Of a stretch of 47,389 bases of DNA, positions 17,166 to 46,116 are shown one piece after another. The position numbers and the translations under genes were made by a program. The notes beneath the pieces were generated by a model, which saw only the letters and a list, made by a program, of their open reading frames with translations, did not search any database and was not told the DNA's origin. This DNA comes from Nitrospirae bacterium RBG_16_64_22 (GTDB lineage: Bacteria > Nitrospirota > RBG-16-64-22): positions 1 to 47,389 of the forward strand of contig MHEK01000082.1 in NCBI GenBank assembly GCA_001803795.1, read 5' to 3'. Each line of letters opens with the position of its first letter. Within the stretch, counting starts at the first letter, position 1.

Positions 17166-18182
17166 CTACTTCTTCTTGCCTTCGAGCGCCTGGATCCTCT
17201 GTTCGAGCGCGCCCAGCTTCTTGAGCGCCGCGTTCACCTTCACGAAGTTGTAGTAGCTAACGTTCGCGACCGGAAGGTCGGGGTTCGATCCCCAGACGAT
17301 CCAGGAATCGTCGTAGTTCCGGACCTTCGTGTACCCCATGTCCCTCAGGACGGCGTACGTGAGTGTCGAGCGCGTCCCGGTCTGGCAGAGGGCGACGATA
17401 TCCTTCTTCGGGTCCAAGCCCTTGTAAAGGTCCTTGAGGCCCTTTTCGTCCTTCAGGGCCATTCCGTTGCGGTCCTTCACCTGACCCGCGCCGAGCTTCT
17501 TGGCGGCGTCCGGATCCACCCAGGCCTGCTCGTACGGGATGTTGACGCTTCCCGCAATGTGCCCGCCCCGGACCGCCCGGATGTCGTCACCGGAGAACTC
17601 CTTGGTTGTCCGGGCGTCGAGGAGCACGACGTCCTTGTTCTTCAGGTTCTTCTTTACGAAGTCGGTCGTGGCCAGGCGGTCGGCCCTAACCTTGGCAGTG
17701 AACTTCGCGGCCGGGAGCTTCTTGATGTCGGCCGAGAGCGGGTGCTTGGCGGCAACCCAGTCGTCGATCCCGCCCATGTAGACCTTGGCCTTCTCGGCCC
17801 CGAGGTATTCGAGGATCCAGAAGGGGACCGTGGCGCTCGTGTCTCCCTTGATGCTGTAGACGATGATATCGGCTTCCCGCTTGATCCCGGCGTCGCCCAG
17901 GATCTTTTCGAGCTTGGCGACGGGAAGGATCCGGGCGTCGACGTCGCGAAGGACCTTCGCGGCGCCCTTGCCGCCCAGGTTGATCGCGCCGGGGATATGC
18001 CCCTTCTTGTAGCCGTCCTCGGCACGGGCGTCCAGGAGGATCGTGCCCGCCTTGTCCTTGTTCTTGAGGACGTAGTCCGTGTTGACGATGACCGAGCCGG
18101 CATGAGCCGTCCCAACCAGTCCAACGGCCATGAGACCCACGAGCAAAGTGCCGAGCAATCCCTTTCCTTTTCGCTTGCGCAT
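17166..18182 (-). CDS. Secreted tandem-rhodanese thiosulfate/3-MP sulfurtransferase-like protein
   Basis: Signal peptide (LLVGLMAVGLVGTAHA), two rhodanese domains (LLDARAEDGYKKGHIPGAINL; LLDARTTKEFSG), active-site loop CQTGTRS, coiled-coil tail. Confidence 0.85.
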   Translation of the reverse strand: MRKRKGKGLLGTLLVGLMAVGLVGTAHAGSVIVNTDYVLKNKDKAGTILLDARAEDGYKKGHIPGAINLGGKGAAKVLRDVDARILPVAKLEKILGDAGIKREADIIVYSIKGDTSATVPFWILEYLGAEKAKVYMGGIDDWVAAKHPLSADIKKLPAAKFTAKVRADRLATTDFVKKNLKNKDVVLLDARTTKEFSGDDIRAVRGGHIAGSVNIPYEQAWVDPDAAKKLGAGQVKDRNGMALKDEKGLKDLYKGLDPKKDIVALCQTGTRSTLTYAVLRDMGYTKVRNYDDSWIVWGSNPDLPVANVSYYNFVKVNAALKKLGALEQRIQALEGKKK

Positions 18183-24583: not shown

Positions 24584-24844
24584 CTAAGCCCGTTCGGCTT
24601 TCTTGACCGTCCACTTGTATTTCCCGCCGTTCGTCGTCTTCTCCGCTATCTCGTCCCCCGTCGTGTCGCACATCGACGCGATCGACTCGCCCGAGGACGG
24701 GTTGTCGAAGATGATCTCCAGCGTGTCTCCGGTCCGCATCTTCTCCAGGGCCTTCTTCGTGTAGAGCTGGGGGTGCGGGCAGACGTATCCCGTCACGTCC
24801 AGCAGGAAAGCGCCTTCACCCTTTTTCTCGAACTTCATTGCCAT
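24584..24844 (-). CDS. TusA/SirA/YedF-family sulfur carrier
   Basis: 86 aa. LDVTGYVCPHPQL (CPxP active-site motif). Lies immediately downstream of YeeE/YedE. Confidence 0.85.
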   Translation of the reverse strand: MAMKFEKKGEGAFLLDVTGYVCPHPQLYTKKALEKMRTGDTLEIIFDNPSSGESIASMCDTTGDEIAEKTTNGGKYKWTVKKAERA

Positions 24845-24937: not shown

Positions 24938-26371
24938 TTATAGGTCACACGCGGCCATTTCCTTGGCCATCTTTCTATCCGTGTACCAGTTGAAGAACTT
25001 CACGCCGAGAAAAGCCCCGCCGATCATCCCGATCCCGAAGAGCCACCCCGAAACGTCGCCCTGGGAGACGCGGACGAAGAAGGCGCCGATGTTGCACCCG
25101 AGACCGAGCCGGGAGCCGATCCCCATGAGCGCCCCGCCGATCACCGCCCACATCGCGAGCTCGAGGGTGGGCGCCTTCCACTTGAACTCGTTGTGGGAAA
25201 GGGCCATGACGGCGGCGCCGAAAATCAGGGCGATCGACATCCAGTCCGCGGGGTTGATCAGCGGGTTCGGGATGCCGTTGTTGAGGCCGAAGTATATGTT
25301 GTCCATGTTGTCCGCGCCGAGCTTGTTGAACACCCACCCCACCCACTGCGCCTCCTGCGTCGTCACGTACCAGTAGCCGGGGTCGAAGACGGTGCCCTTC
25401 TCGGAGAGGCCGAACGTGATCCCCATCCTCTGCATCAGCTCGCCGAAGTTCTGGACGCCGAACTTGACCTGAAGCCCCTTCATCACGAACATGTGGAGGC
25501 CCGCCGCGATTCCCAGGATCAGTCCGGCGATCGCCGTCCGCTTGGAGGCGGCGATCATGCCCCAGTAACCGGCGAGCTCGACGCCGAGACCGGAGCTGGG
25601 CAGACCTTCCTTCTTCCGCTTGCCCAGGAAGGACTTCCGCACCCAGATGAGATAGACCCCGAGGAGGATCAACGCCGCGGGCAGGATGATGCCCACGAGA
25701 ACGTTCCCCACGTAGGCCGCGAGGAACGGGTTCTTGAACTTCACGATTTCGGCGTACGACGTGGTCGGGAGGTTCCACACGTGGCCGGCCAGGAACTGGT
25801 CCACCCACCCGTCGCCCGCGTTGATCGAGGCGGGGAGCCCCTTGGCGACGGCCGAGTCGTGCCAGGACTGCGGGGCCAGCTTGTTGGCCCAGCCGCCGAT
25901 GTCCGCGAAGATCGCCTGCGTCACGCTGATCGAAAGGATCACGAGGAAGGCCACGCCGTTCCCCTCTCCGGCCTTGTAGAGCGAGCCGGAGGCGCACCCT
26001 CCAGTCAGGACCATCCCGACGCCGAAGATGAGCCCGGCGATGACGGCGTGAACGCCGTAGGGCGCGGAGTGGAACGTGCTCATCCCGACGGCCGTGACGA
26101 AGGCTGAGACGAGGCCGAAGAGGGCCATCGCGATCATGATCCCGACGGCCATCCGGGGGACGCCGACGGCGAAGAGGTCCCGGAACGCCGAGGAGAAGCA
26201 GAACCGACCGTACTGGAGGCTCATGCCGTAGATGAAGCCGAACCACAAGTAAGCCGTGAGGTAGATGTAGTACTCGTTCATCGCGTACGTGACGATGCTG
26301 ACGACGGACAGGAACACCACGATGGCTAGAATCCAGAGCTGATTTTTCCGGTTTGTTTCATCCATTGCCAT
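24938..26371 (-). CDS. YeeE/YedE-family (thio)sulfate/selenium-type transporter, 477 aa long form
   Basis: Polytopic membrane protein with the conserved Cys loops (QYGRFCFSSAF, LTGGCASGSLYKAGEGN, LGLGCNIGAFF). Confidence 0.85.
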   Translation of the reverse strand: MAMDETNRKNQLWILAIVVFLSVVSIVTYAMNEYYIYLTAYLWFGFIYGMSLQYGRFCFSSAFRDLFAVGVPRMAVGIMIAMALFGLVSAFVTAVGMSTFHSAPYGVHAVIAGLIFGVGMVLTGGCASGSLYKAGEGNGVAFLVILSISVTQAIFADIGGWANKLAPQSWHDSAVAKGLPASINAGDGWVDQFLAGHVWNLPTTSYAEIVKFKNPFLAAYVGNVLVGIILPAALILLGVYLIWVRKSFLGKRKKEGLPSSGLGVELAGYWGMIAASKRTAIAGLILGIAAGLHMFVMKGLQVKFGVQNFGELMQRMGITFGLSEKGTVFDPGYWYVTTQEAQWVGWVFNKLGADNMDNIYFGLNNGIPNPLINPADWMSIALIFGAAVMALSHNEFKWKAPTLELAMWAVIGGALMGIGSRLGLGCNIGAFFVRVSQGDVSGWLFGIGMIGGAFLGVKFFNWYTDRKMAKEMAACDL

Positions 26372-30155: not shown

Positions 30156-31103
30156 ATGGAAAAGAAGCCTAAGACCGCCTCCGGGCGGGTGACCGTTTTC
30201 GCCCCGGCGTCGATCGGGAACGTGGGGCCGGGGTTCGACGTGCTCGGGATGGCGGTCACGGGACGCGGGGACACGGTGACCGCGCGGGTCACGCTCGCCC
30301 GCGGGGTCCGGATCCTGGCGATCACGGGTGACTCCCGGAATCTGCCGCTCGACCCGGGGAAAAATACGGCCGGAATCGCGGCGGCGGAGGTCCTTCGGCT
30401 GTTGGGCGTGAAGCAGGGCGTGGAGCTTTCCATCCACAAGAACATTCCGGGCTCGGGGATGGGGTCGTCCGCCGCCTCGGCCGTGGCGGGCGCCTTCGCC
30501 GTGAACGCGCTCTTCGGCGGGAAGCTCTCGAAGCAGGACCTGCTGATTCCGGCCGCGAACGCGGAGTCGCGCGTGTCCGGAGGCTACTTCCTGGACAACG
30601 TCGGGGCGTCGCTCCTGGGAGGGATCATCGTCACCAACCCGTTCAGCAAGCACACCGTTTCGCTCGGGACGATCCCCGGCCTCCACGTCGTCGTCGTGAC
30701 GCCCTCCGTGGAGGTCCTCACGAAGAAGGCGAGGGCGATCCTCCCGAAGGAGATCCCGATGGACGACTTCGTGACAAACATGGCGAACGCCTGCGGCATG
30801 GTGCGGGCCGTGCAGATCAAGGACGCCGTCCTCTTCGGGACGTCGATTCACGACGCCGTCGTCGAGCCGCACCGGGCGGGGCTGATCCCCGGCTTCTTCG
30901 ACGTGAAGAGGTCGGCCCTTTCGGCGGGCGCGCTGGGCTGTTCCATCTCGGGGGCCGGCGCCTCCGTCTTTGCCGTTGCGGACCGGAAGGAGACGGCCGC
31001 CGAGGTCGGCCGGGCCATGCAGGAGGCCTTCCTCCGGCACAAGGCGACCTCCGTCGTGACGCTCGCCCGGGTGGACAAGGAAGGGGCGAGGGTGATCGGA
31101 TGA
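30156..31103 (+). CDS. thrB: Homoserine kinase
   Basis: APASIGNVGPGFDVLG, GHMP-kinase motif IPGSGMGSSAASAVAG, SGAGASVFA. Confidence 0.9.
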   Translation: MEKKPKTASGRVTVFAPASIGNVGPGFDVLGMAVTGRGDTVTARVTLARGVRILAITGDSRNLPLDPGKNTAGIAAAEVLRLLGVKQGVELSIHKNIPGSGMGSSAASAVAGAFAVNALFGGKLSKQDLLIPAANAESRVSGGYFLDNVGASLLGGIIVTNPFSKHTVSLGTIPGLHVVVVTPSVEVLTKKARAILPKEIPMDDFVTNMANACGMVRAVQIKDAVLFGTSIHDAVVEPHRAGLIPGFFDVKRSALSAGALGCSISGAGASVFAVADRKETAAEVGRAMQEAFLRHKATSVVTLARVDKEGARVIG

Positions 31104-31105
31104 GA

Positions 31106-31273
31106 AAGGGCGGATTGAAAATTGTAAATTGGAAATTGTAAAACTTGAGAACACAAACCCGGCCCAGGGGCCGCGAGGCACTCTGTAAATTGCAATTTTT
31201 GTCCTGTCCTCGCCTTTCACTTTGAAATTTCCAATTTCCAGTTTACAATTTACAATTCTTGCCCTGTCCTCGC
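31106..31273 (+). repeat. AT-rich heptamer-array element B1 (GTAAATT/GGAAATT arrays as inverted arms around a GC core)
   Basis: gggcggattgaaaattgtaaattggaaattgtaaaacttgaga...ctctgtaaattgcaatt...cctgtcctcgccttt...gaaatttccaatttccagtttacaatttacaatt. Shares a long core with B2. Confidence 0.85.
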
Positions 31274-31360
31274 CTTTGAAGAACCCCGCCTCGAAAGGCG
31301 GGGTTCTCCGACCTCTAAGGTACCTATCGTTATTTTCATTCGTGCGCCTTCGGCGCACTT
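31274..31360 (-). terminator. Conserved two-hairpin 3-prime element (copy 1) ending in a terminator-like hairpin
   Basis: Read on the minus strand: AAGTGCGCCGAAGGCGCAC-GAATGAAAATA...CTTAGAGGTCGGAGAA-CCCCGCCTTTCGAGGCGGGG-TTCTTCAA. It lies directly after the stop of the squalene-synthase-like gene. Confidence 0.55.
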
Positions 31361-32215: not shown

Positions 32216-32432
32216 TTAGAATTGTAAATTGGAAATTGGAAATTGGAAATTTCAAAGGCGAGGACAGGGCGAGAATTGAGAATTGGAAATTGGAAATTGT
32301 AAATCGTAAAACTTGAGAATCCAAACTCGGCCGAGCGGCGCGAGGCGCTCTGTAAATTGCAATTCTTGCCCTGTCCTCGCCTTTCACTTTGAAATTTCCA
32401 ATTTCCAATTTCCAATTTCCAATCCGCCCTTT
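32216..32432 (+). repeat. AT-rich heptamer-array element B2
   Basis: Arrays of gtaaatt/ggaaatt, an inverted copy of the GC box (tcaaaggcgaggacagggcgagaattg), a core near-identical to B1 (aaacttgagaa..ctctgtaaattgcaatt..ccctgtcctcgcctttcac), then inverted arrays (aatttcc x4). Confidence 0.85.
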
Positions 32433-33587
32433 TCATCCGATCTCCCCCAGCGGCGGCGGGGCTGCGGCCGGGCGTCTTCGGCACCAGTGGTCGGGCGGGC
32501 GGTGCGCGCAGGGACCGCGGCGGCCCCAAGCGAGGCGGACGAGGGGCAACATGAGGCGGCGGATCGCGGAGGGCTTCTGCCAGGCCATCAGGTAGTCGCG
32601 GAAGTCCTTCCGGGCCGCCTGCCGGGCGAAGTGGGCCAGACCCGCGTTCCCCGACGCCTCGTAAAGGAACCGGCCGACAAGGGAGGCCGCCTGGCGGTCC
32701 TTCTGCTTCACGGTTTCGGCGAGCACTCCCTCGCCCAGCAGACGCCGAGCCGCGAGGCGGCCCGTTTCAAGAGCCCTCCTGATTCCGAGCCCAAAGAGGT
32801 AGTCCTGGTACCCCCCGGCCTCGCCGGCGAGGAGAGGTGCTTCGGTGGGATGTGGATCGATTTGAAATCCCCCCTCTTGGTTGATCGTGAAGTTCATGTA
32901 GGAATAGGCGGTTCGGACATTCTCTTTCCTTAACGTCTCGATCGCGTCGAACCGTTCTTCGCACGACCTGGCAAACCCGTCGATCCCCTTGAAGTGCCGC
33001 GTGACGGCGCAGCCCATCGTTCCCCATCCGTCCAGAACGAAGAGATAGGCGTACCCGCCGGGAGAGACGGCCTGGTCGAAGAGGACCCAGACGCGATCGC
33101 GCCCCGCCGTCCGGAAGACCGTTTCGCGGGCGAGGCCGTCGGCGGCGGCCGGGCCAGTCGCAACGATGTCGGCCTGATACGGTTCGGCGGGACCGATCCG
33201 CCGGTTGAACTCCACCCGAGCGCCCATCCTTTCCGCCTGCAGGAGGAGGCCGCGGTCGAGCGTTCCTTCGTCCGGGCCGCGCTTGAGGAAATAGCCGTAC
33301 GGAAGGCCGCTCTTCACGGGATGGCCGTTCATCCGGTGGTCAAAGAGGACGGCGTCCCAGACCGGCTTGAGCCAGAAGTTCGTGTCGATTCCGACGGCAT
33401 GAAGGAAAGAGAGCGCGTCTTCCGGCCGGGAGTGGTTCTCAAGAATCTGGAAGCCGCCGATGAAGCGGCCGCCGACCGTTCCGCGGGCCTCGGCCACCGT
33501 CACGGAGAGCCCGGCGCCGGCGAGCGTCATGGCCGCCGTGAGGCCGGCGGGACCGGCCCCCGCGATCAGGATGGGAGAATCGGGCAT
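32433..33587 (-). CDS. FAD-dependent oxidoreductase (geranylgeranyl-reductase-like)
   Basis: Start chosen at ATG 33587 (MPDSPILIAGAGPAGLTAAMTLAGAGLSVTVAEARGTVGGR). The longer track ORF begins inside an octamer array. Confidence 0.7.
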   Translation of the reverse strand: MPDSPILIAGAGPAGLTAAMTLAGAGLSVTVAEARGTVGGRFIGGFQILENHSRPEDALSFLHAVGIDTNFWLKPVWDAVLFDHRMNGHPVKSGLPYGYFLKRGPDEGTLDRGLLLQAERMGARVEFNRRIGPAEPYQADIVATGPAAADGLARETVFRTAGRDRVWVLFDQAVSPGGYAYLFVLDGWGTMGCAVTRHFKGIDGFARSCEERFDAIETLRKENVRTAYSYMNFTINQEGGFQIDPHPTEAPLLAGEAGGYQDYLFGLGIRRALETGRLAARRLLGEGVLAETVKQKDRQAASLVGRFLYEASGNAGLAHFARQAARKDFRDYLMAWQKPSAIRRLMLPLVRLAWGRRGPCAHRPPDHWCRRRPAAAPPPLGEIG

Positions 33588-33603: not shown

Positions 33604-33702
33604 CGGTGAATGGGTGAATCGGTGAGTCGGTGAATCGGGGAAACTGCATAATTCCAGCCCTTGGTCCATTCACCCATTCACCGATTAACCGATTCACCAA
33701 TT
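33604..33702. repeat. Inverted pair of GGTGAAT octamer arrays (A3)
   Basis: cggtgaatgggtgaatcggtgagtcggtgaatcgg ... ccattcacccattcaccgattaaccgattcacc, separated by about 28 nt. Confidence 0.85.
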
Positions 33703-33770
33703 GATCATTCTTCATGCTAGAATATCGCACGTTCAGGGACAAGAGCTAAACCCTTTAGTTGAAGGAGGCC

Positions 33771-34139
33771 ATGGTGTCGGTATCGGGAACCCGGTTCTAC
33801 TACAAATCGACCTGAAACGCCTGCCGCAGAGCGAGGAGTTTCCTTGCCAAGACGGGCGCGAAGTATGAAGAGCGGGATATGGCGAAGACCCCTCCGAACG
33901 AGGACGAAGTCCGGGAACTGGTCGGCAATCGTCCCATCGAGCAGTTCCTGAATCCCCGGTCGGAGATCTTTCGGGAGCGGCGGATGAAGGAGAACCCCCC
34001 CAGCAAGGAGGAGGCGGTCAAGCTGATGGCGGGGGACGCCAACCTGATCCTCCGGCCGATCCTCGTGCGCGGGGCGCGGATCCATATCGGTTTCGAGGGG
34101 CTGCGGGACGAGCGCGCCTATCGCGACCTGATCGCCTGA
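33771..34139 (+). CDS. Spx/ArsC/YffB-family redox protein with in-frame TGA (candidate selenocysteine, U-N-A-C)
   Basis: ATG 33771 (GAAGGAGG upstream) opens MVSVSGTRFYYKST-TGA(33813-33815)-NACRRARSFLAKTGAKYEERD, in frame with the 86-aa track ORF 33879-34139. The TGA aligns with the first Cys of the Spx CxxC (..SCTSCRKARAWL..). Confidence 0.65.
33824..33855 (+). other. Candidate bacterial SECIS hairpin
   Basis: Upper stem gcgagg/ccttgc with loop aguuu, lower stem ccg/cgg. It starts 8 nt after the TGA. Confidence 0.35.
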
Positions 34140-34145
34140 CGACCC

Positions 34146-35216
34146 ATGGCCGCGCGAATCGTCTTCAACGAGGCGGTCGATGACCAGGTCGTGAACCTGA
34201 TCGCGGCTTGCGGCGGCTCGCCCAACGCCGACCTCGTGAAGGACATCATTCACACGGCCCTCCGGGCCGTCATCGACGGAACGGACCGGGGCGACCTCAA
34301 GATCCTCTCCCGCTCCCTCCGCGAGCTCAGGTACGCGTTCAAGGTCTTCGCGCCGTACAAGGACAGGCGGAAGATCTCGATCTTCGGCTCCGCGCGGACG
34401 AGCGAGGACGAGCCGATCTACGCCTACGCCGCCGAGTTCGGCCGGCGGATCGCCGACGCGGGGTTCATGGTCATCACGGGCGCCGGGGAGGGGATCATGG
34501 AGGCGGGTCACCGGGGGGCCGGCCGCGACCGCTCCTTCGGCCTCAACATCCGGCTCCCGTTCGAGCAGGCCCCCAACGAGGTGATCGAGAACGACCCCAA
34601 GCTGATCCTCTTCCACTACTTCTTCACGCGGAAGCTCTTCTTCGTGAAAGAGGCGGACGGCCTCGTCTTTTTCCCCGGCGGGTTCGGCACCAACGACGAG
34701 ACGTACGAGTCGATGACGCTCGTCCAGACGGGGAAGAGCGAGATGGTCCCGCTCGTCATGCTCGATGTTCCCGGCGGGACCTACTGGCGGGAGTGGGAGG
34801 GGTTCGTGAGCGACCACCTCGTCCGCCGCGGGCTGATTGCGCCGGAGGACCTCTCCCTGTTCACCGTGACCGACTCGATCGACGCGGCGATCGGCGAGAT
34901 CGAGCGTTTCTACCGCGTGTATCATTCGTCGCGCTACGTCCACGACGCGCTGGTTCTCCGGCTGACCGCGCACCTGCCCCCGGAGACCGTCGAGGCGCTG
35001 AACGATTCCTTTTCGGACATCCTCGCGGACGGGCGGATCGAGAGCGCCCACGCTTTCCCGGAGGAGGCCAACGAGCCCCAGACGTTCCACCTGCCGAGAC
35101 TGGTCCTCCGTTTCAACCGCAAGAGGTTCGGGAGGCTCCGACAGCTCATCGACGCGGTCAACAGGGCGCCCGTGACGCCCGAAGCACACCACGCGGTCCG
35201 GACGCCGGGGGCATGA
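34146..35216 (+). CDS. LOG-family (TIGR00730-type) nucleotide phosphoribohydrolase with C-terminal extension
   Basis: ISIFGSAR, VITGAGEGIMEAGHRGA, PGGFGTNDETYE (PGGxGTxxE). Confidence 0.8.
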   Translation: MAARIVFNEAVDDQVVNLIAACGGSPNADLVKDIIHTALRAVIDGTDRGDLKILSRSLRELRYAFKVFAPYKDRRKISIFGSARTSEDEPIYAYAAEFGRRIADAGFMVITGAGEGIMEAGHRGAGRDRSFGLNIRLPFEQAPNEVIENDPKLILFHYFFTRKLFFVKEADGLVFFPGGFGTNDETYESMTLVQTGKSEMVPLVMLDVPGGTYWREWEGFVSDHLVRRGLIAPEDLSLFTVTDSIDAAIGEIERFYRVYHSSRYVHDALVLRLTAHLPPETVEALNDSFSDILADGRIESAHAFPEEANEPQTFHLPRLVLRFNRKRFGRLRQLIDAVNRAPVTPEAHHAVRTPGA

Positions 35217-35220
35217 AGGC

Positions 35221-35388
35221 CGGTGAATGGGTGAAACGGTGAATGGGCGAATGGGTGAATGGACAAGCACTCAGCCGTCAGCGATCAGCGGTCAGCAAGA
35301 ATGGAATACGTCTCTTGAATTGTGCTGAAAGCCGAAAGCTGAATGCTGACTGCTGACAGCTATCGGTGAGCGCGTGAATCGGCGAAGC
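35221..35388. repeat. Composite array element: GGTGAAT units, GGTCAGC units, spacer, inverted GCTGAC units, degenerate GGTGAAT units
   Basis: cggtgaatgggtgaaacggtgaatgggcgaatgggtgaat...tcagccgtcagcgatcagcggtcagc...gctgaaagccgaaagctgaatgctgactgctgacagc...cggtgagcgcgtgaatcggcgaag. Confidence 0.8.
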
Positions 35389-37008: not shown

Positions 37009-37124
37009 AAGTGCGCCGCAATCCCCGCCCCTTGGGGCGGGTCAAGGCGCGCGAATGCAAAATACCTCCAAGCAACTTAGAGGCCGGAGAATCCCCGCCT
37101 TTCAAGGCGGGGTTCTTCAATAGG
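37009..37124 (+). terminator. Conserved two-hairpin 3-prime element (copy 2) with an extra hairpin nested in the first loop
   Basis: AAGTGCGCCG[caatccccgccccttggggcgggtcaag]GCGCGC-GAATGCAAAATA...CTTAGAGGCCGGAGAA-TCCCCGCCTTTCAAGGCGGGG-TTCTTCAA. It lies 50 nt after the thyX-like stop. Confidence 0.55.
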
Positions 37125-37561
37125 ACCCTCCCCTTCAAGGGGAGGGTTAGGGCGGGGATGGGGTTGGGTCCGTGAAAGGCCAGACGAATAAGCTCATTGC
37201 CGGCGGGAAACTCCAACGCACATTGCGAAAGAACATGACGGAGGCGGAGCGCCGGCTTTGGCAATGCCTCAGGAAGGAACAGATGCGGGGCATGAAATTC
37301 CGCCGACAACATCCGTTTGGGGACTTCGTTCTTGATTTTGTTTGTCTTGAGGCGAGGCTTGTTGTGGAAGTCGATGGTGGTCAACATCTTGAGCGGAGGG
37401 AGATCGATCTTGTCCGCTCAAGGTTTCTCGAAACGGCTGGGTTTCGTGTTCTCAGATTTTGGAATCATGAGGTCTTGCGAGATCCGGAGGCGGTTGCAAG
37501 CGCGGTATGGGAGGCGCTGGGAAACCCATCCCCACCCCGCCCCTCCCCTTGAAGGGGAGGG
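37125..37561 (+). mobile_element. DUF559 gene bracketed by ~40-bp inverted repeats (candidate small mobile unit)
   Basis: Left: accctccccttcaaggggagggttagggcggggatggggttgggt. Right: aacccatccccaccccgcccctccccttgaaggggagggt, which is the reverse complement with few mismatches. The ORF fills the space between them and its stop lies inside the right repeat. Confidence 0.5.
37172..37552 (+). CDS. DUF559 endonuclease-domain protein (Vsr/restriction-endonuclease-like fold)
   Basis: LRKNMTEAERRLWQCLR...FRRQHPFGDFVLDFVC...LVVEVDGGQH...D..R...L...GFRVLRFWNHEV matches the typical DUF559 pattern. GTG start. Confidence 0.8.
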   Translation: MKGQTNKLIAGGKLQRTLRKNMTEAERRLWQCLRKEQMRGMKFRRQHPFGDFVLDFVCLEARLVVEVDGGQHLERREIDLVRSRFLETAGFRVLRFWNHEVLRDPEAVASAVWEALGNPSPPRPSP

Positions 37562-40076: not shown

Positions 40077-40123
40077 GGTTCACCCCTCCGAAGCGCGAAA
40101 CGTCCGGAACAAATGAGAAATGA

Positions 40124-40262
40124 AGATTGAAAATTGTAAATTGGAAATTGGAAATCGCAAATCGAGAATCCGGAGCGCAGGTATTTGCGCGGCGCCATGC
40201 CGCTTCGCCTGCTCTTTGAATTTACAATTTGCAATTTACAACTTACAATTTCCAATTCTCTT
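40124..40262 (+). repeat. AT-rich heptamer-array element B3
   Basis: gattgaaaattgtaaattggaaattggaaatcgcaaatcgagaatc - GC core - gaatttacaatttgcaatttacaacttacaatttccaattctc. The left end matches the B1 left end. Confidence 0.8.
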
Positions 40263-41058: not shown

Positions 41059-41153
41059 CCTTCCCCCTCAGGGGGAAGGTCGGGATGGGGGCGGGGTTCG
41101 ACTGGCGGAACAATCCCATCCCCACCCTGGCCCTCCCCTTGAAGGGGATGGGA
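41059..41153. mobile_element. ORF-less miniature of the DUF559-flanking inverted repeats (MITE-like)
   Basis: ccttccccctcagggggaaggtcgggatgggggcggggtt - ~12 nt - aatcccatccccaccctggccctccccttgaaggggatgg. Both arms resemble 37125-37169 and 37522-37561, with no gene between them. Confidence 0.5.
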
Positions 41154-41851: not shown

Positions 41852-41902
41852 CCGGTGAATCGGTGAATGGGTGAGTCGGTGAGTCGGTGAATCGGTGAAT
41901 CG
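41852..41902 (+). repeat. GGTGAAT octamer array A5
   Basis: ccggtgaatcggtgaatgggtgagtcggtgagtcggtgaatcggtgaatcg. Confidence 0.85.
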
Positions 41903-41931: not shown

Positions 41932-42603
41932 ATGTTCCGGCGGCTGAACAGCGAAATACAGGTCTTCCTGGAGCGGGACCCGGCGGCGCGGAGCGTTCTG
42001 GAGGTCGTCACCTGCTATCCCGGCCTCCATGCGATCCTTTTCCACCGCTTCGCCCACTGGCTGTGGGGGCGGGGGCTGAGGCTCCTTGCGCGGATGGTCT
42101 CCCAGACGTCCCGGTTCCTGACGGGGATCGAGATCCATCCCGGCGCCCGCGTCGGCGAGCGGTTCTTCATCGACCACGGATCGGGCGTGGTGATCGGTGA
42201 GACGGCCGAGATCGGCGACGACGTCCTGATCTACCAGGGCGTCACGCTGGGCGGGACGGGGAAGGAGAGGGGCGGGAAGCGCCATCCGACCATCGGCGAC
42301 CGGGTGACCGTCGGCGTCGGCTCGGTCGTCCTGGGACCGATTACGATCGGCCACGACGTGCGCATCGGCGCGGGCTCCGTGGTCGTCAAGCCGGTCCCCG
42401 ACAACTGCACGGTTGTCGGTGTTCCGGGCCGGATCGCCCGGATGGAGGGGAGGAAGCTCACGGACGACGAGCTGCTCGCCCACGGGAACCTTCCCGATCC
42501 CGAGGTCCAGTTGATCCGAGAGATGCAGGATCGCGTCTCGGAACTGGCCGAACGGCTCAGGGTGCTGGAAAAGCGGATGCGGGATGAGTCGGTGAATGGG
42601 TGA
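41932..42603 (+). CDS. cysE: Serine O-acetyltransferase
   Basis: [54 protein letters not shown], and hexapeptide repeats. The tail DESVNG-stop is encoded by array A6. Confidence 0.85.
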
Positions 42604-42694
42604 ATCGGTGAATCGGTGAATCGGAAAGGCACTCCTCCCCTTTGTAAGGCCCCGAAATCACGTTCGGGGCAGAAGAGGATGGGTGGGGTAGAGA
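42588..42694 (+). repeat. Array A6 plus conserved ~70-nt tail
   Basis: gtcggtgaatgggtgaatcggtgaatcggtgaatcgg, then aaaggcactcctcccctttgtaaggccccgaaatcacgttcggggcagaagaggatgggtggggtagag. Confidence 0.85.
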
Positions 42695-42702
42695 ATGGCG
42701 TG

Positions 42703-43536
42703 ATGCGAAACGAAACCGTCGGGAAGCTGAAGACAGCCATGTGTATCCTCCGGGAGACGGGAGGATGCGTCGTCGCTTTCTCGGGCGGCGTCGATTCGGC
42801 CGTTGTCACGGCCGTCGCGCGCGAGGTCCTGGGGGACCGCGTTCTCGCCGTGACGGGGGATTCGGCATCCCTCCCGGCGCGGGAGCGGGGGGACGCGGTC
42901 CGCGTGGCCGCCTTCACGGGTGTCCGCCACCGCTTCATCCGAACGAAGGAACTCTCCGACGGTCGGTACGCCGCGAACCCCCCCGATCGGTGCTTCTACT
43001 GCAAGGACGAGTTGTATTCCCGGCTGTTCGAGATCGCGGGAGACGAGGGACTGCCGGCCGTCGTGGACGGGCAGAACGCGGACGACGCTTCGGACTACCG
43101 GCCGGGCTCCGAGGCCGCGCGCAGGCATGCCGTCCGGTCTCCGCTCAAGGAGGCGGGTCTTTCGAAGGCGGAAGTCCGGGAGATTGCGCGGGACCGCGGG
43201 ATCCCGATCTGGGACAAGCCGGCCTCGCCCTGCCTGGCTTCGCGGTTCCCCTACGGAACGACGATCACGGCTGACGCGCTGGCGCGGGCGGACACGGCGG
43301 AAATATTCGTACGGTCGCTGGGGTTTCGGGATGTGCGGGTGCGGGTCCGGGGCGGCTCCGCGACGGTAGAGGCGGAGCCTGGGAGCGTCGCCCGCCTGTT
43401 GGATCCTGCCTTGGCGGCGCGCGTGGTCGAGGCGCTTCAGGGCATGGGTTTCGCGGACGTCCGGATCGATCCGGAAGGGTTCCGGAGCGGGAAGATGAAT
43501 GAAGGAATGATCAACGGTGAATCGGTGAATGGGTGA
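42703..43536 (+). CDS. PP-loop ATPase of the LarE/TIGR00268 type (ATP-dependent sulfur transferase-like)
   Basis: VVAFSGGVDSAVV (SGGxDS PP-loop), CFYCKDELY, VVDGQNADD, PCLASRFPYG. The start is uncertain (42679 or 42703). The earlier track start lies inside the repeat. Confidence 0.7.
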   Translation: MRNETVGKLKTAMCILRETGGCVVAFSGGVDSAVVTAVAREVLGDRVLAVTGDSASLPARERGDAVRVAAFTGVRHRFIRTKELSDGRYAANPPDRCFYCKDELYSRLFEIAGDEGLPAVVDGQNADDASDYRPGSEAARRHAVRSPLKEAGLSKAEVREIARDRGIPIWDKPASPCLASRFPYGTTITADALARADTAEIFVRSLGFRDVRVRVRGGSATVEAEPGSVARLLDPALAARVVEALQGMGFADVRIDPEGFRSGKMNEGMINGESVNG

Positions 43537-43618
43537 ATGGGTGAATCGGAAAGACACTCCTCCCCTTTGTAAGGCCCCGAAAGCATGCTCGGGGCAGGGA
43601 AGGTTGGGAGGGGTAGAA
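43515..43618 (+). repeat. Array A7 plus conserved ~70-nt tail
   Basis: cggtgaatcggtgaatgggtgaatgggtgaatcgg, then aaagacactcctcccctttgtaaggccccgaaagcatgctcggggcagggaaggttgggaggggtaga. An inverted partner of the tail start (ccttacaaaggagggg) lies at 43658-43673. Confidence 0.85.
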
Positions 43619-43675: not shown

Positions 43676-44806
43676 ATGCACAACGCGGGTCGGGGTTTGA
43701 ATTTGGATCGTGTCATTGTCGGAATGTCGGGAGGCGTGGACTCGTCGGTCGCCGCGCTCCTTCTCAAGGAGAGGGGATACGAGGTCATCGGCGTGACACT
43801 CCACGTCTGGTCGAATCCGGCGCCCTCGCCGAGCGACCGTGAACGGGGTTGCTGTGCCGTGGAGGCCGTCGGCGATGCGCTCGAGGTCTGCGAGCGGCTG
43901 GGGATTGCCCACCGCCTCGTGGACGCGCGGGAGGCGTTCACGTCCGGCGTGATTGAACCGTTCGCCGACGCCTACCTGAACGGTCGGACGCCGAACCCCT
44001 GCATCGACTGCAACAGGATGGTCAAGTTCGCCGCGCTCATGGACGAAGCGGAACGGCTCGGGGCGCGATGGATCGCGACCGGCCACTACGCCCGCCTGAG
44101 CGGGGAGCCGGGCGGCCGCGTGGAGATCCGACGGGCAGGGGATCGCCGCAAGGACCAGAGCTACGTCCTCTACGCCCTCTCTCAGGCGGTCCTGGGGCGC
44201 CTCCTTCTGCCTCTTGGCGATCTTTCCAAGGAAGACGTCCGGCGGATCGCCCGGGACAACGCCTTGCCCGTAGCCGACAAGGCAGACAGCGTGGAGATCT
44301 GCTTCGTTCCGGACGGCGACCACGGGGCGTTCCTGTCGCGTTTTCGTCCGGGGGCCGTGCGGCCGGGGCCGATCACGGACGCGGCCGGACGAACCGTTGG
44401 GACGCACGCGGGGATCGCCCGCTATACGATCGGCCAGCGGCGCGGGCTCGGCGTGGCCGCGGGGGAGCGGCGGTACGTCGTCGGGCTGGATCCCGCGAGG
44501 AACGAAGTCGCCTTGGGGGACCGGTCCGATCTGGCCGTCTCCGGGATAGAGATCGCCGGCGTGAACTGGGTCTCGGTTGCGGGAGGGGCGTCGGGTTCGG
44601 TGAAGGTCCAGTACCGGTCGATGATGGCGGCGGTTCCGGGGGAATTTTCGCCGGGGCGGGACGGCGGCGGCAGGGTCCGTTTCGCCGAGCCCCAGTACGG
44701 CGTCGCGGCCGGGCAGGCCGCTGTCCTGTACGACGGGGACCGCCTCCTGGGCGGGGGCACGGTGGCTGGGGCGAGATCGGCTGGTATAGGCGAACAGAGG
44801 GACTGA
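43676..44806 (+). CDS. mnmA: tRNA-specific 2-thiouridylase
   Basis: Start ATG 43676 with AAGGAGGGG upstream. VIVGMSGGVDSSVAA (PP-loop), GCC..EAV, NPCIDCN, ATGHYAR, KDQSYVL. Confidence 0.9.
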   Translation: MHNAGRGLNLDRVIVGMSGGVDSSVAALLLKERGYEVIGVTLHVWSNPAPSPSDRERGCCAVEAVGDALEVCERLGIAHRLVDAREAFTSGVIEPFADAYLNGRTPNPCIDCNRMVKFAALMDEAERLGARWIATGHYARLSGEPGGRVEIRRAGDRRKDQSYVLYALSQAVLGRLLLPLGDLSKEDVRRIARDNALPVADKADSVEICFVPDGDHGAFLSRFRPGAVRPGPITDAAGRTVGTHAGIARYTIGQRRGLGVAAGERRYVVGLDPARNEVALGDRSDLAVSGIEIAGVNWVSVAGGASGSVKVQYRSMMAAVPGEFSPGRDGGGRVRFAEPQYGVAAGQAAVLYDGDRLLGGGTVAGARSAGIGEQRD

Positions 44807-44838
44807 GGCACAAAGGCACAAAGGCGCATAGGCACGGA
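44807..44838 (+). repeat. GGCACAAA-type octamer array
   Basis: ggcacaaaggcacaaaggcgcataggcacgga lies between the mnmA stop and the redoxin start. Confidence 0.75.
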
Positions 44839-44849
44839 GGGATGTTGCG

Positions 44850-45383
44850 ATGAGGCGTTTCAATATTGCCATTCTTGGGCTTGTCCTGTTTTCGCTCTTC
44901 TCCATGGATGCGGGCACGGCAGCGGCGGCGCCGGTCGCCGTCGGATCGAAGGCCCCCGACTTCAAGACGACGGACCACGACGGCCGGTCGGTGACCCTCT
45001 CCGGGCTCCGGCACGGCCGGAAGCTCGTCCTCGTCTTCTACCGGGGGGAGTTCTGAGGGGCCTGCCGCTCGCAGTTGGCGGGCCTGAGCGAAAAGATCCT
45101 GGAGTTCCGCGGCACGGGGGCAGGCGTCGCCGCCGTGAGCGCGGATCAGACTCATGTCTCGAAAGGTCTCCGAGACCGGCTGAGCCTGTCGTTCCCGCTT
45201 CTCTCCGATCCCAAGAGGATCGTCATCCGGAAGTACGGCGTGCTGAACAAGGATCAAGCGGCGAAACCGGCCGTCTTCATCCTGGACAGCAAGGGAATCG
45301 TCCGGTGGGAATACATCGGGAAGAGCCCGTCCGACCGGCCCGAGCCCGAGACCCTGCTGACGGAGTTGGCGAAGATCAATTAG
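44850..45383 (+). CDS. Secreted Prx-like/redoxin-family thiol:disulfide oxidoreductase with in-frame TGA (candidate selenocysteine, U-G-A-C)
   Basis: Track ORFs 44850-45056 and 45075-45383 share one frame (225 nt apart). Joined, they read ...KLVLVFYRGEF-TGA(45054-45056)-GACRSQLAGLSEKILEF..., the FYRG.W-CxxC-..QL pattern of AhpC/TSA-redoxin proteins. N-terminal signal peptide. Confidence 0.65.
45059..45084 (+). other. Candidate bacterial SECIS hairpin
   Basis: 8-bp stem ggccugcc/ggcgggcc (one G-U pair) with a 10-nt loop gcucgcaguu. It starts 2 nt after the TGA. Confidence 0.35.
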
Positions 45384-45441: not shown

Positions 45442-46116
45442 ATGAAACGAGCCCAAGTCTTCAGACGAATCGTTCTTGCAACCGCTGCCGTCATTCTGCT
45501 TGGCGCGGGCGCCGGGATCGGCGCGGCGTCCGCGGACGACAAGTTCCCCCTGCCGCCCCCGCCCCCGCTCCCCGGCTCGGACCTCGCCTACAAGGCGGCG
45601 AAGGAGTTCTTCAGGTTCAACGAGAAGATGGTGGAGAAGACGGCGAGGGTCCTCCCCCAACATGACATGAGCGTCCTCATGTTTCTCGCCCGCGAGGCGA
45701 ACCGCCCGCTCGACCATCTGGTCGATCTCAGGCACAAAGGTCTTCCCTTTCCCGACATCGCCGCGCGGATCGGGCTTCCGCCCACTGTCTTTCTCGTTCC
45801 CATGCCGGTCGACGCGCGCGTGGGCCCGCCTTACGGCAAGGCCCACGGCTACTGGAAGCACCACAAACACGGCAGGTCCGTGAAGATCGTCTTTACGGAT
45901 GCCGAAGTGATCGATCTCGTGAACCTGCGGATCGTCTCAGGGTTCTACGGCGTTCCGGTGATCGACGTGATCCGGATGCGGGAGAGGGGGACTTTCTTTC
46001 CCGGAGTCTACGAGCACTATCACGGAAAGCACAAAATGAAAGGGAAGAAGCACAAGGAGAAGCACTGGGACGACCACCCCGGCAAGGGAAAGGGGAAGGG
46101 GCGAGGCAGGGATTAG
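45442..46116 (+). CDS. Secreted hypothetical protein with His/Lys/Gly-rich C-terminal tail
   Basis: Start ATG 45442 (AAAGGAG 7 nt upstream). Signal peptide (VLATAAVILLGAGAGIGAASA), PPPPPLP, and tail HYHGKHKMKGKKHKEKHWDDHPGKGKGKGRGRD. Confidence 0.5.
   Translation: MKRAQVFRRIVLATAAVILLGAGAGIGAASADDKFPLPPPPPLPGSDLAYKAAKEFFRFNEKMVEKTARVLPQHDMSVLMFLAREANRPLDHLVDLRHKGLPFPDIAARIGLPPTVFLVPMPVDARVGPPYGKAHGYWKHHKHGRSVKIVFTDAEVIDLVNLRIVSGFYGVPVIDVIRMRERGTFFPGVYEHYHGKHKMKGKKHKEKHWDDHPGKGKGKGRGRD

Follow-up and report, generated by a model that had tools for sequence, protein, structure and literature searches.

Does the in-frame TGA at positions 45054-45056 of a contig from Nitrospirae bacterium RBG_16_64_22 (GenBank assembly GCA_001803795.1, contig MHEK01000082.1) end one small gene ahead of another, or is it read as selenocysteine (Sec) within a single gene? 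The whole stretch of DNA analyzed, 47,389 nucleotides from position 1 of this contig, is referred to here as the window; its features are on the plus (+) strand unless marked (-). A first-pass annotation, made from the letters alone, took the two short open reading frames (ORFs) on either side of this TGA as one gene for a secreted peroxiredoxin (Prx)-like redoxin, with Sec as the first residue of a UxxC motif. The pairing of Cys and Sec forms among homologs, the conservation of the TGA, purifying selection on both sides of it, and an enrichment of hairpins in Sec forms all support that proposal. The TGA almost certainly encodes Sec, and 44850-45383 is very probably one gene of the Nitrospiria for an exported, thioredoxin-fold, Prx-like thiol:disulfide oxidoreductase in which UGA 45054-45056 is decoded in this way.

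Two Open Reading Frames Encode a Single Domain

A single frame runs through 44850-45383 with one internal stop, the TGA, around which it reads ...KLVLVFYRGEF*GACRSQLAGL.... Translation and the ORF list agree on two ORFs in this common frame, 44850-45056 (68 amino acids) and 45075-45383 (102 amino acids). The complete gene comprises 177 codons including Sec69, terminates at a TAG (45381-45383), and has orthologs of equal structure. On inspection of the sequence, a Shine-Dalgarno-like GGAGGG (44836-44841) lies 8 nt 5′ of the ATG at 44850, and no well-spaced Shine-Dalgarno is seen before the TTG at 45075.

With the TGA replaced by Cys, the joined 177-amino-acid product matches the Pfam AhpC-TSA profile (PF00578) contiguously over positions 1-123 of 124 (E = 3.7e-31), scoring 108 bits against a cut-off of 26, and so belongs to this family. 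The N-terminal half alone covers only positions 1-36 of the profile, and the C-terminal half alone positions 45-123 (E = 4.7e-15). Because the profile is split in this way, neither half is a complete domain, as the first-pass annotation had proposed of the redoxin fold, and the ORFs are therefore two parts of one domain. TGA is also the ordinary stop of 21 of the 36 likely genes in the window, where it is the commonest stop codon. There is thus no global reassignment of the code, and decoding at 45054 must depend on local context.

The N terminus consists of MRR, a hydrophobic core (Kyte-Doolittle 2.5-2.7), and an Ala-rich end. Judged by inspection, residues 1 to approximately 27 (44850-44930) form a predicted signal peptide of the general secretory (Sec) type, with an approximate cleavage site. 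The signal-peptide-like segment described earlier is thus present, and the protein would be exported. Export by the twin-arginine (Tat) pathway was considered and rejected, as the arginines at residues 2-3 are not conserved (L002, an orthologous contig, has MRG).

The TGA Aligns with the First Cysteine of WCxxC

In the alignment column of the TGA, full-length homologs have the first Cys of a WCxxC motif of the thioredoxin type (FYRGHWCGAC in P0005, FYRGEWCPVC in P0010, and FYRGGWCPYC in P0017). This is the CxxC position of FYRG.WCP.C-type redoxins, to which the TGA had originally been assigned, and it yields a Cys/Sec pair with TGA at the first UxxC position and Cys in at least two homologs. 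The redox motif is accordingly U-G-A-C (45054-45065), whose Cys72 aligns with the peroxidatic Cys of peroxiredoxins, both in the homolog alignment and against PDB entries 2cx3 and 2ywn. Classical BCP-type peroxiredoxins have Thr or Ser in the TGA column and their peroxidatic Cys in the column of Cys72.

A metagenome scan confirmed 586 stretches as relatives, of which 80 loci were kept. The peptide pattern used ended in Cys, so that the scan returned almost only Cys forms, and these loci served as a negative control: 79 of the 80 have LVFYRGxWCxxC, and one (L077) has TGA at that position.

The TGA Is Conserved among Close and Distant Homologs

The four closest database proteins (81-95% identity) all correspond to the 102-amino-acid C-terminal fragment. 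Every contig that encodes a close ortholog contains the N-terminal ORF, the TGA, the 18 in-frame nt, and the C-terminal ORF. Across all of L001-L007, which are independent assemblies with 81-95% protein identity, the gene order is mnmA, prx-like gene, hypothetical secreted protein, response regulator, and polA, and a DNA alignment of these seven orthologous contigs shows that the TGA and ∼75 nt around it are invariant. The genome scan returned one close relative only, the contig L008, a GTDB species representative of a Nitrospiria bacterium from Hainich groundwater, in which the same gene is split by the same TGA. L008 is collinear with the window over 39.3-45.6 kb at 78-90% nucleotide identity, which places the window in the class Nitrospiria.

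The TGA also recurs in other organisms at greater distance. Seven exported homologs, with ∼35-49% identity to the window protein, have a TGA at the homologous codon: FYRGEW-U-PFC (L011), FYLGDW-U-IYC (L012), FYRGMW-U-PNC and FYRGMF-U-PFC (L013a and L013b), FYRGYW-U-PFC (L077), FHRGHW-U-PFC (L095), and FRTFG-U-SHC (L096). Each of these distant Sec forms begins with a signal peptide, a membrane anchor, or a sequence resembling a lipobox. The two genes of L013 (262-837 and 834-1412) stand in tandem with identical hairpins of the selenocysteine insertion sequence (SECIS) type, as a duplicated selenoprotein pair. The search for Cys- and Sec-containing orthologs that the first-pass annotation had proposed thus recovers both kinds.

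An exhaustive HMMER search of 1.84 billion representatives, with the C-terminal half as query, gave 1399 matches. Among the best 149 of these (own cluster excluded), 105 are ≤135 amino acids long, with their first residue in or immediately past the active site; some of them begin with M-x-C-R-x-Q-L, that is, within the UxxC motif itself. The contigs of seven short matches were checked, and six contain TGA-split genes. The seventh (P0063/L094) was rejected as a Sec form: it is a Cys form ended by the end of its contig, and it appears among the short matches because of this contig-end and adapter artifact rather than a Sec split, so that the figure of 105 of 149 somewhat overestimates the Sec fraction. 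The 5′ end of this short ENA contig (L094, 1-105) encodes an adapter-like peptide (...SFPTRRSSDL) fused to the Cys-form gene, probably an assembly artifact.

The rate of nonsynonymous substitution (dN) is below that of synonymous substitution (dS) both upstream and downstream of the TGA in all ortholog pairs, and dN/dS is mostly 0.1-0.4, which indicates purifying selection on both halves. Just after the TGA, 1 of 12 codons is variable, compared with 51 of 99 in the rest of the C-terminal half (p = 0.005), which fits an RNA constraint on top of the coding constraint. Since close orthologs and distant homologs alike have the TGA at this codon, it is an old, recurrent, and selected feature and not a lesion. 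Neither outcome that would have spoken for separate proteins was found: orthologs do not end at this point as independent short proteins, as the in-frame 18 nt and the C-terminal half are conserved, and the two halves are conserved as one contiguous AhpC-TSA domain.

A Model-Compliant Hairpin Follows the TGA

In a published model, bacterial SECIS elements have a defined loop pattern, a stem of 4-16 bp, a UGA-to-loop distance of 16-37 nt, and an energy of ≤ -7.5 kcal/mol (PMC13188914). The first-pass annotation had proposed a hairpin starting just 3′ of the TGA. Such a hairpin exists, as the minimum free energy (MFE) structure at 45058-45085 (10-12 bp, -18.9 kcal/mol), but it is not statistically special, and its loop starts only 11-13 nt past the UGA. 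Compared with dinucleotide shuffles it has z = -0.3 to -1.3, and 21-143 of 200 shuffles fold at least as well; because shuffles of this GC-rich sequence fold so readily, the long hairpin alone is not beyond chance. A C-to-U change within it in L008 keeps one pair as G-U.

The SECIS candidate that complies with the model occupies the same stretch of sequence in a different register. The hairpin GCUCGC-AGUUG-GCGGGC (45067-45083) has 6 bp, a 5-nt loop (45073-45077) with G second and U third, a spacing of 16 nt, and an energy of -8.5 to -9.6 kcal/mol, in agreement with all four criteria of the model. If the 12-13 nt that follow the U of the UGA are kept unpaired, as expected with a ribosome at this codon, this hairpin is the MFE structure. 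The best aligned segment of L077 (36% identity) has a like layout, UCGGC-AGUUA-GCCGA with spacing 16, and differs from the window by two compensatory pairs (C-G to U-A and C-G to G-C) and one one-sided change; this sequence is unable to form the long hairpin. The other Sec forms have a different hairpin design, centered one codon further on with spacing 20-21, either with 3-nt loops (GCAGCUC-GUG-GAGCUGC, GCAACUC-GGC-GAGUUGC, and GCAGCUC-GGU-GGGCUGC) or with 5-nt loops (GCCAGCU-CGUGC-AGCUGGC and CCAGCU-CGGGC-AGCUGG).

We compared 8 Sec forms with 72 distinct Cys forms in a strict scan that allowed no bulges in the hairpins sought. With the energy threshold as published, hairpins that comply with the model are present in 6 of the 8 Sec forms and in 3 of the 72 Cys forms (Fisher p = 7e-6); at -6 kcal/mol, the counts are 8 of 8 and 4 of 72 (p = 2e-8). 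This enrichment is not due to the amino acid sequence, because the Q-L-x-x-L peptide is also encoded by the Cys forms. Among these, the three exceptions, L030 (hairpin from 1641), L034 (from 501), and L041 (from 1656), are close relatives of one another. They read GDWCPYCNGQLAAY and keep a SECIS-like hairpin, CGGCC-AGUU/AGCU-GGCCG, 16 nt past the Cys codon, perhaps as a remnant of a Sec codon recently replaced by Cys, or perhaps by chance. A further small hairpin, CCUGG-AGUU-CCGCGG (45098-45112), is invariant in close orthologs and has a loop that fits the SECIS pattern; at 46 nt past the UGA, it lies outside the 37-nt limit of the model.

It is conceivable, though we consider it rather unlikely, that the two overlapping hairpins act as a two-state Sec-insertion signal in this Nitrospiria clade, in which the ribosome has to melt the strong hairpin at 45058-45085, beginning 1-2 nt past the UGA, and the 3′ arm re-pairs in a shifted register as the minimal AGUUG-loop SECIS at 45067-45083, with the shortest spacing that the model permits. 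If so, Sec insertion would be coupled to the arrival of the ribosome, and read-through could be tuned in this way. No such SECIS layout is known to have been described in bacterial selenoprotein genes, and here it would serve an exported selenoprotein in a lineage that is seldom regarded as selenium dependent.

A Second Candidate Selenoprotein Gene Lies in the Same Window

An ArsC/Spx-like gene at 33771-34139 is another candidate for Sec decoding. It is split by a TGA at 33813-33815, where it reads YYKST-U-NACRRA, and its joined product matches Pfam ArsC with E = 1.9e-12. At 22 nt past the UGA there is a hairpin, GCGAGGA-GUU-UCCUUGC, that agrees with the SECIS model. By sequence, this gene appears to correspond to the catalogued “arsenate reductase 2, cd03032, UxxC” selenoprotein family.

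The first-pass annotation had drawn attention to a U-x-A-C-R context common to both candidates. The 9-mer GCCTGCCGC does indeed follow both TGAs (33813 and 45054), but it is best explained by the common x-A-C-R peptide together with codon bias toward G or C at third positions (GC3). As a nucleotide signal it was rejected: A-C-R is encoded in it by the GC3 codons used most often, and distant Sec forms show unrelated sequence at this place.

The presence of a second candidate UxxC gene with an in-frame TGA in the window, together with selB and selC reported in a groundwater Nitrospirae lineage (PMC8124441), provides indirect support for Sec decoding. A TusA/YedF-like gene (24584-24844, (-)) adjoins a gene for a YedE/YeeE (Sulf_transp) membrane protein (24938-26371, (-)). 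The best NCBIfam match of the latter is “selenium metabolism membrane protein YedE/FdhT”, below its cut-off and with a similar score for the thiosulfate transporter TsuA. As the NCBIfam scores of the pair are below cut-offs and YedE/FdhT and TsuA are inseparable, this pair was not used as a link to selenium metabolism.

The Gene Product Resembles a Catalogued Selenoprotein Family

Prx-like thiol:disulfide oxidoreductase selenoproteins are reportedly the subject of work by Kryukov and Gladyshev from 2004 and by Zhang and colleagues from 2005 to 2008. One of the earliest bacterial selenoprotein families to be predicted was a “Prx-like protein” that has a thioredoxin-like UxxC where Sec-peroxiredoxin has TxxU, with 22 Sargasso Sea sequences (PMC1088965), and “Prx-like 1, pfam00578, UxxC” has 225 sequences in the Global Ocean Sampling data (PMC2398784). 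Prx-like (pfam00578, UxxC) is a listed selenoprotein family (PMC2398784, PMC1088965, PMC9312934, PMC13188914), with members in Geobacter, Syntrophus, and Desulfotalea genomes (PMC1794560). Set beside the description of Prx-like 1 (UxxC/UxxU; reference WP_010940744.1, Geobacter sulfurreducens), the window gene is alike in having a PF00578 domain, Sec first in UxxC with the second Cys at the Prx peroxidatic position, abundant Cys homologs, and an intragenic hairpin after the UGA. It differs in its occurrence in Nitrospiria from groundwater and soil metagenomes, in its N-terminal export signal, in a G-A spacer where P-x is common, and in a SECIS candidate at the minimal 16-nt spacing that overlaps a competing larger hairpin. 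On these sequence features, the gene agrees with the Prx-like UxxC family in every respect by which that family is defined at sequence level.

PrxU (NCBIfam NF040737) is also a selenoprotein with the AhpC-TSA fold, but its Sec replaces the peroxidatic Cys (TxxU), whereas the window protein keeps a Cys there and has Sec in place of the Thr, three residues nearer the N terminus; the protein scores 46.3 bits against a PrxU cut-off of 270. Exported or anchored thioredoxin-fold AhpC-TSA/Redoxin proteins of the TlpA/ResA/CcmG type share a WCxxC-type center, and the ResA model aligns with residues 10-159. At 57.3 bits against a cut-off of 170, however, the protein is not a member of ResA/TlpA (NF002854), and Pfam scans of the window reveal no cytochrome-c maturation genes or DsbD/CcdA-type reductant near the prx-like gene. 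The best-scoring NCBIfam model is that of the SelL-related redox proteins (SelL_rel_redox, NF040769), which have a Prx-like fold and a CxxC/UxxU-type center; only residues 34-131 are aligned, and the score of 63.9 bits against a cut-off of 120 places the protein outside this family as well. In addition, the window protein may fall within CDD PRX_like2 (cd02970), a group of Prx-like proteins having a CxxC with the second Cys as the peroxidatic Cys and lacking the other catalytic residues; the features so described are all seen in it.

Proposed Mechanism and Alternatives

We infer Sec insertion itself, the hairpin that is used, export, the substrate, and the reductant from these comparisons. SelB carrying Sec-tRNA(Sec) would bind a SECIS hairpin within the coding sequence just 3′ of the UGA. 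The element is most likely the 6-bp, AGUUG-loop hairpin at 45067-45083, which would form once the approaching ribosome unwinds 45058-45085. The product would then be exported by the Sec pathway, and the mature protein would have a U69-G-A-C72 redox center at the thioredoxin CxxC position. Its selenolate is predicted to attack an oxidized substrate, either a disulfide, a sulfenic acid, or possibly a peroxide; Cys72 would resolve the intermediate to an intramolecular selenenylsulfide, and a putative reductant would regenerate the center. To our knowledge, no member of the Prx-like UxxC family has a demonstrated substrate.

Several observations weigh against reading the locus as a Prx-like selenoprotein gene. 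The long hairpin that is the MFE structure folds no better than shuffles and has its loop nearer the UGA than the 16-37 nt of the model, and the hairpin that complies with the model is not the MFE structure of the free RNA and has a spacing at the extreme lower limit. The region is invariant within the close clade, which therefore shows no covariation there, and the covariation support comes from L077 alone. At gathering thresholds, Rfam gives no match in the whole window. The window protein scores below the curated cut-offs of all NCBIfam models, the best being SelL_rel_redox. No selA, selB, selC, or selD was found within the 47-kb window by ARAGORN, Rfam, and Pfam searches: the Pfam scans of ∼45 of its ORFs contain no SelA, SelB, or SelD, and ARAGORN detects neither tRNA-Sec nor any other tRNA in the window, L001, L002, L004, or L008. 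The related loci that were scanned likewise contain no tRNA-Sec, selA, selB, or selD. Finally, we know of no experimental evidence for any member of this subfamily.

The alternative that survives best concerns the chemistry rather than the decoding. The protein could be a genuine peroxidase, similar to glutathione peroxidase or PrxU, in which Sec69 is oxidized by peroxide to a selenenic acid that Cys72 resolves. The closest solved structures are indeed BCP/PrxQ peroxiredoxins, namely Aeropyrum pernix BCP (2cx3, E = 3.4e-18, residues 29-176) and 2ywn; the window protein can be aligned with 2cx3 over these residues, and Cys72 is at the peroxidatic position common to BCP/PrxQ. In glutathione peroxidases, moreover, Sec can react with peroxides without the Prx Arg. 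However, the protein lacks three of the four residues of the Prx active site: the Pro and Thr of PxxxTxxC are replaced by Arg and Sec, giving RGEF-U-GAC, and the conserved Arg (AKRAVF in 2cx3) is replaced by Pro (AKPAVF), so that only the Cys is retained. The UxxC motif in place of S/TxxC and the signal peptide also set the protein apart from BCP/PrxQ, the Cys homologs have a thioredoxin-type WCxxC, and catalogs list the family among thiol:disulfide oxidoreductases, its thioredoxin-like UxxC differing from the TxxU of Sec-peroxiredoxin. We therefore regard peroxidase function as improbable, if worth keeping in mind. With a single Prx active-site residue of four retained, the most likely mechanism, judging from the predicted protein sequence, is thioredoxin-like cycling of a U-x-x-C selenenylsulfide outside the cytoplasm.

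Far less probable is a recoding of the UGA to a residue other than Sec, either to Cys by a SelB-dependent, selC*-type tRNA(Cys) or to Trp or Cys by near-cognate read-through. The residue aligned with the TGA in homologs is Cys, and SelB-dependent tRNA(Cys) of the selC* type occurs in some anaerobic Nitrospirae and Deltaproteobacteria, the genes being reported among Nitrospirae in Thermodesulfovibrio and in some metagenomic contigs (PMC5389517). In the genomes studied, however, selC* was reported alongside complete Sec systems (PMC5389517), the family is catalogued as Sec containing, and decoding by SelB and Sec calls for a dedicated hairpin of this kind, with G in the loop and at SECIS spacing.

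A pseudogene or an assembly error at the TGA, by which a former Cys redoxin gene was split into two nonfunctional pieces, might be read from the division of the gene into two ORFs by the gene callers of all source databases and from the lack of visible Sec machinery in the window. The same TGA is nonetheless present at the homologous codon in at least eight independent close-clade assemblies and in seven distant homologs, dN is below dS on both sides of it, the frame is never otherwise disrupted, and hairpins of the SECIS type go with the TGA forms rather than with the Cys forms; with the TGA conserved, this explanation is effectively refuted. Least probable of all are two small proteins, a 68-amino-acid secreted peptide ending at the TGA and a 102-amino-acid cytoplasmic protein starting at TTG 45075: mechanical ORF calling and the Pfam score of the C-terminal half alone suggest them, but each half is an incomplete fold of a domain contiguous over the gap, the TTG lacks a well-spaced Shine-Dalgarno, the 18 invariant in-frame nt between TGA and TTG encode C-R-S-Q in alignment with full-length homologs, and the first downstream start codon varies in position among distant Sec forms.

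Implications for Annotation

Reading 44850-45383 as one 177-amino-acid selenoprotein gene corrects an annotation error, the two short ORFs given in every public assembly of the clade. The Prx-like UxxC family gains a representative from groundwater and soil Nitrospiria and a large set of exported relatives, which would imply that part of the extracytoplasmic redox defense of these bacteria is selenium dependent. The gene belongs to an already catalogued family of predicted bacterial selenoproteins and is in this sense real but ordinary: one more candidate for study, without a conceptual advance. Its points of modest interest are the Nitrospiria host, the consistently extracytoplasmic location, and the two mutually exclusive hairpins, of which the compliant one has minimal spacing.

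Other Features of the Window

Directly 5′ of the Shine-Dalgarno of the prx-like gene, at 44806-44835, is a tandem 9-mer repeat (GGCACAAAG, GGCACAAAG, GGCGCATAG, GGCAC...). At the matching place in the orthologous contig L004 (positions 1-40), another 9-mer, GGGACAGAG, is present in ∼4 copies. The 3′ neighbor of the prx-like gene (45443-46116, +) is kept in L001-L005 and has a separate Shine-Dalgarno (AAGGAG). Its product matches no Pfam family, begins with a signal peptide, and ends in a tail rich in Lys, His, and Gly; it may be a partner or substrate of the selenoprotein.

A two-domain rhodanese is encoded at 17166-18182 (-). Short interspersed repeats of 40-140 nt, with 82-97% identity, occur in both orientations in intergenic sequence and at the 5′ ends of annotated ORFs, with copies at 444-529, 31090-31350, 32218-32446, 33604-33717, 35211-35264, 37044-37166, 37522-37561, 40113-40171, 41111-41151, 41853-41899, 42585-42693, and 43499-43617. 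They inflate the N termini of ORFs 42616 and 43529, are also present in the Nitrospiria contig L008, and look like an element of the repetitive extragenic palindromic (REP) or miniature inverted-repeat transposable element (MITE) type.

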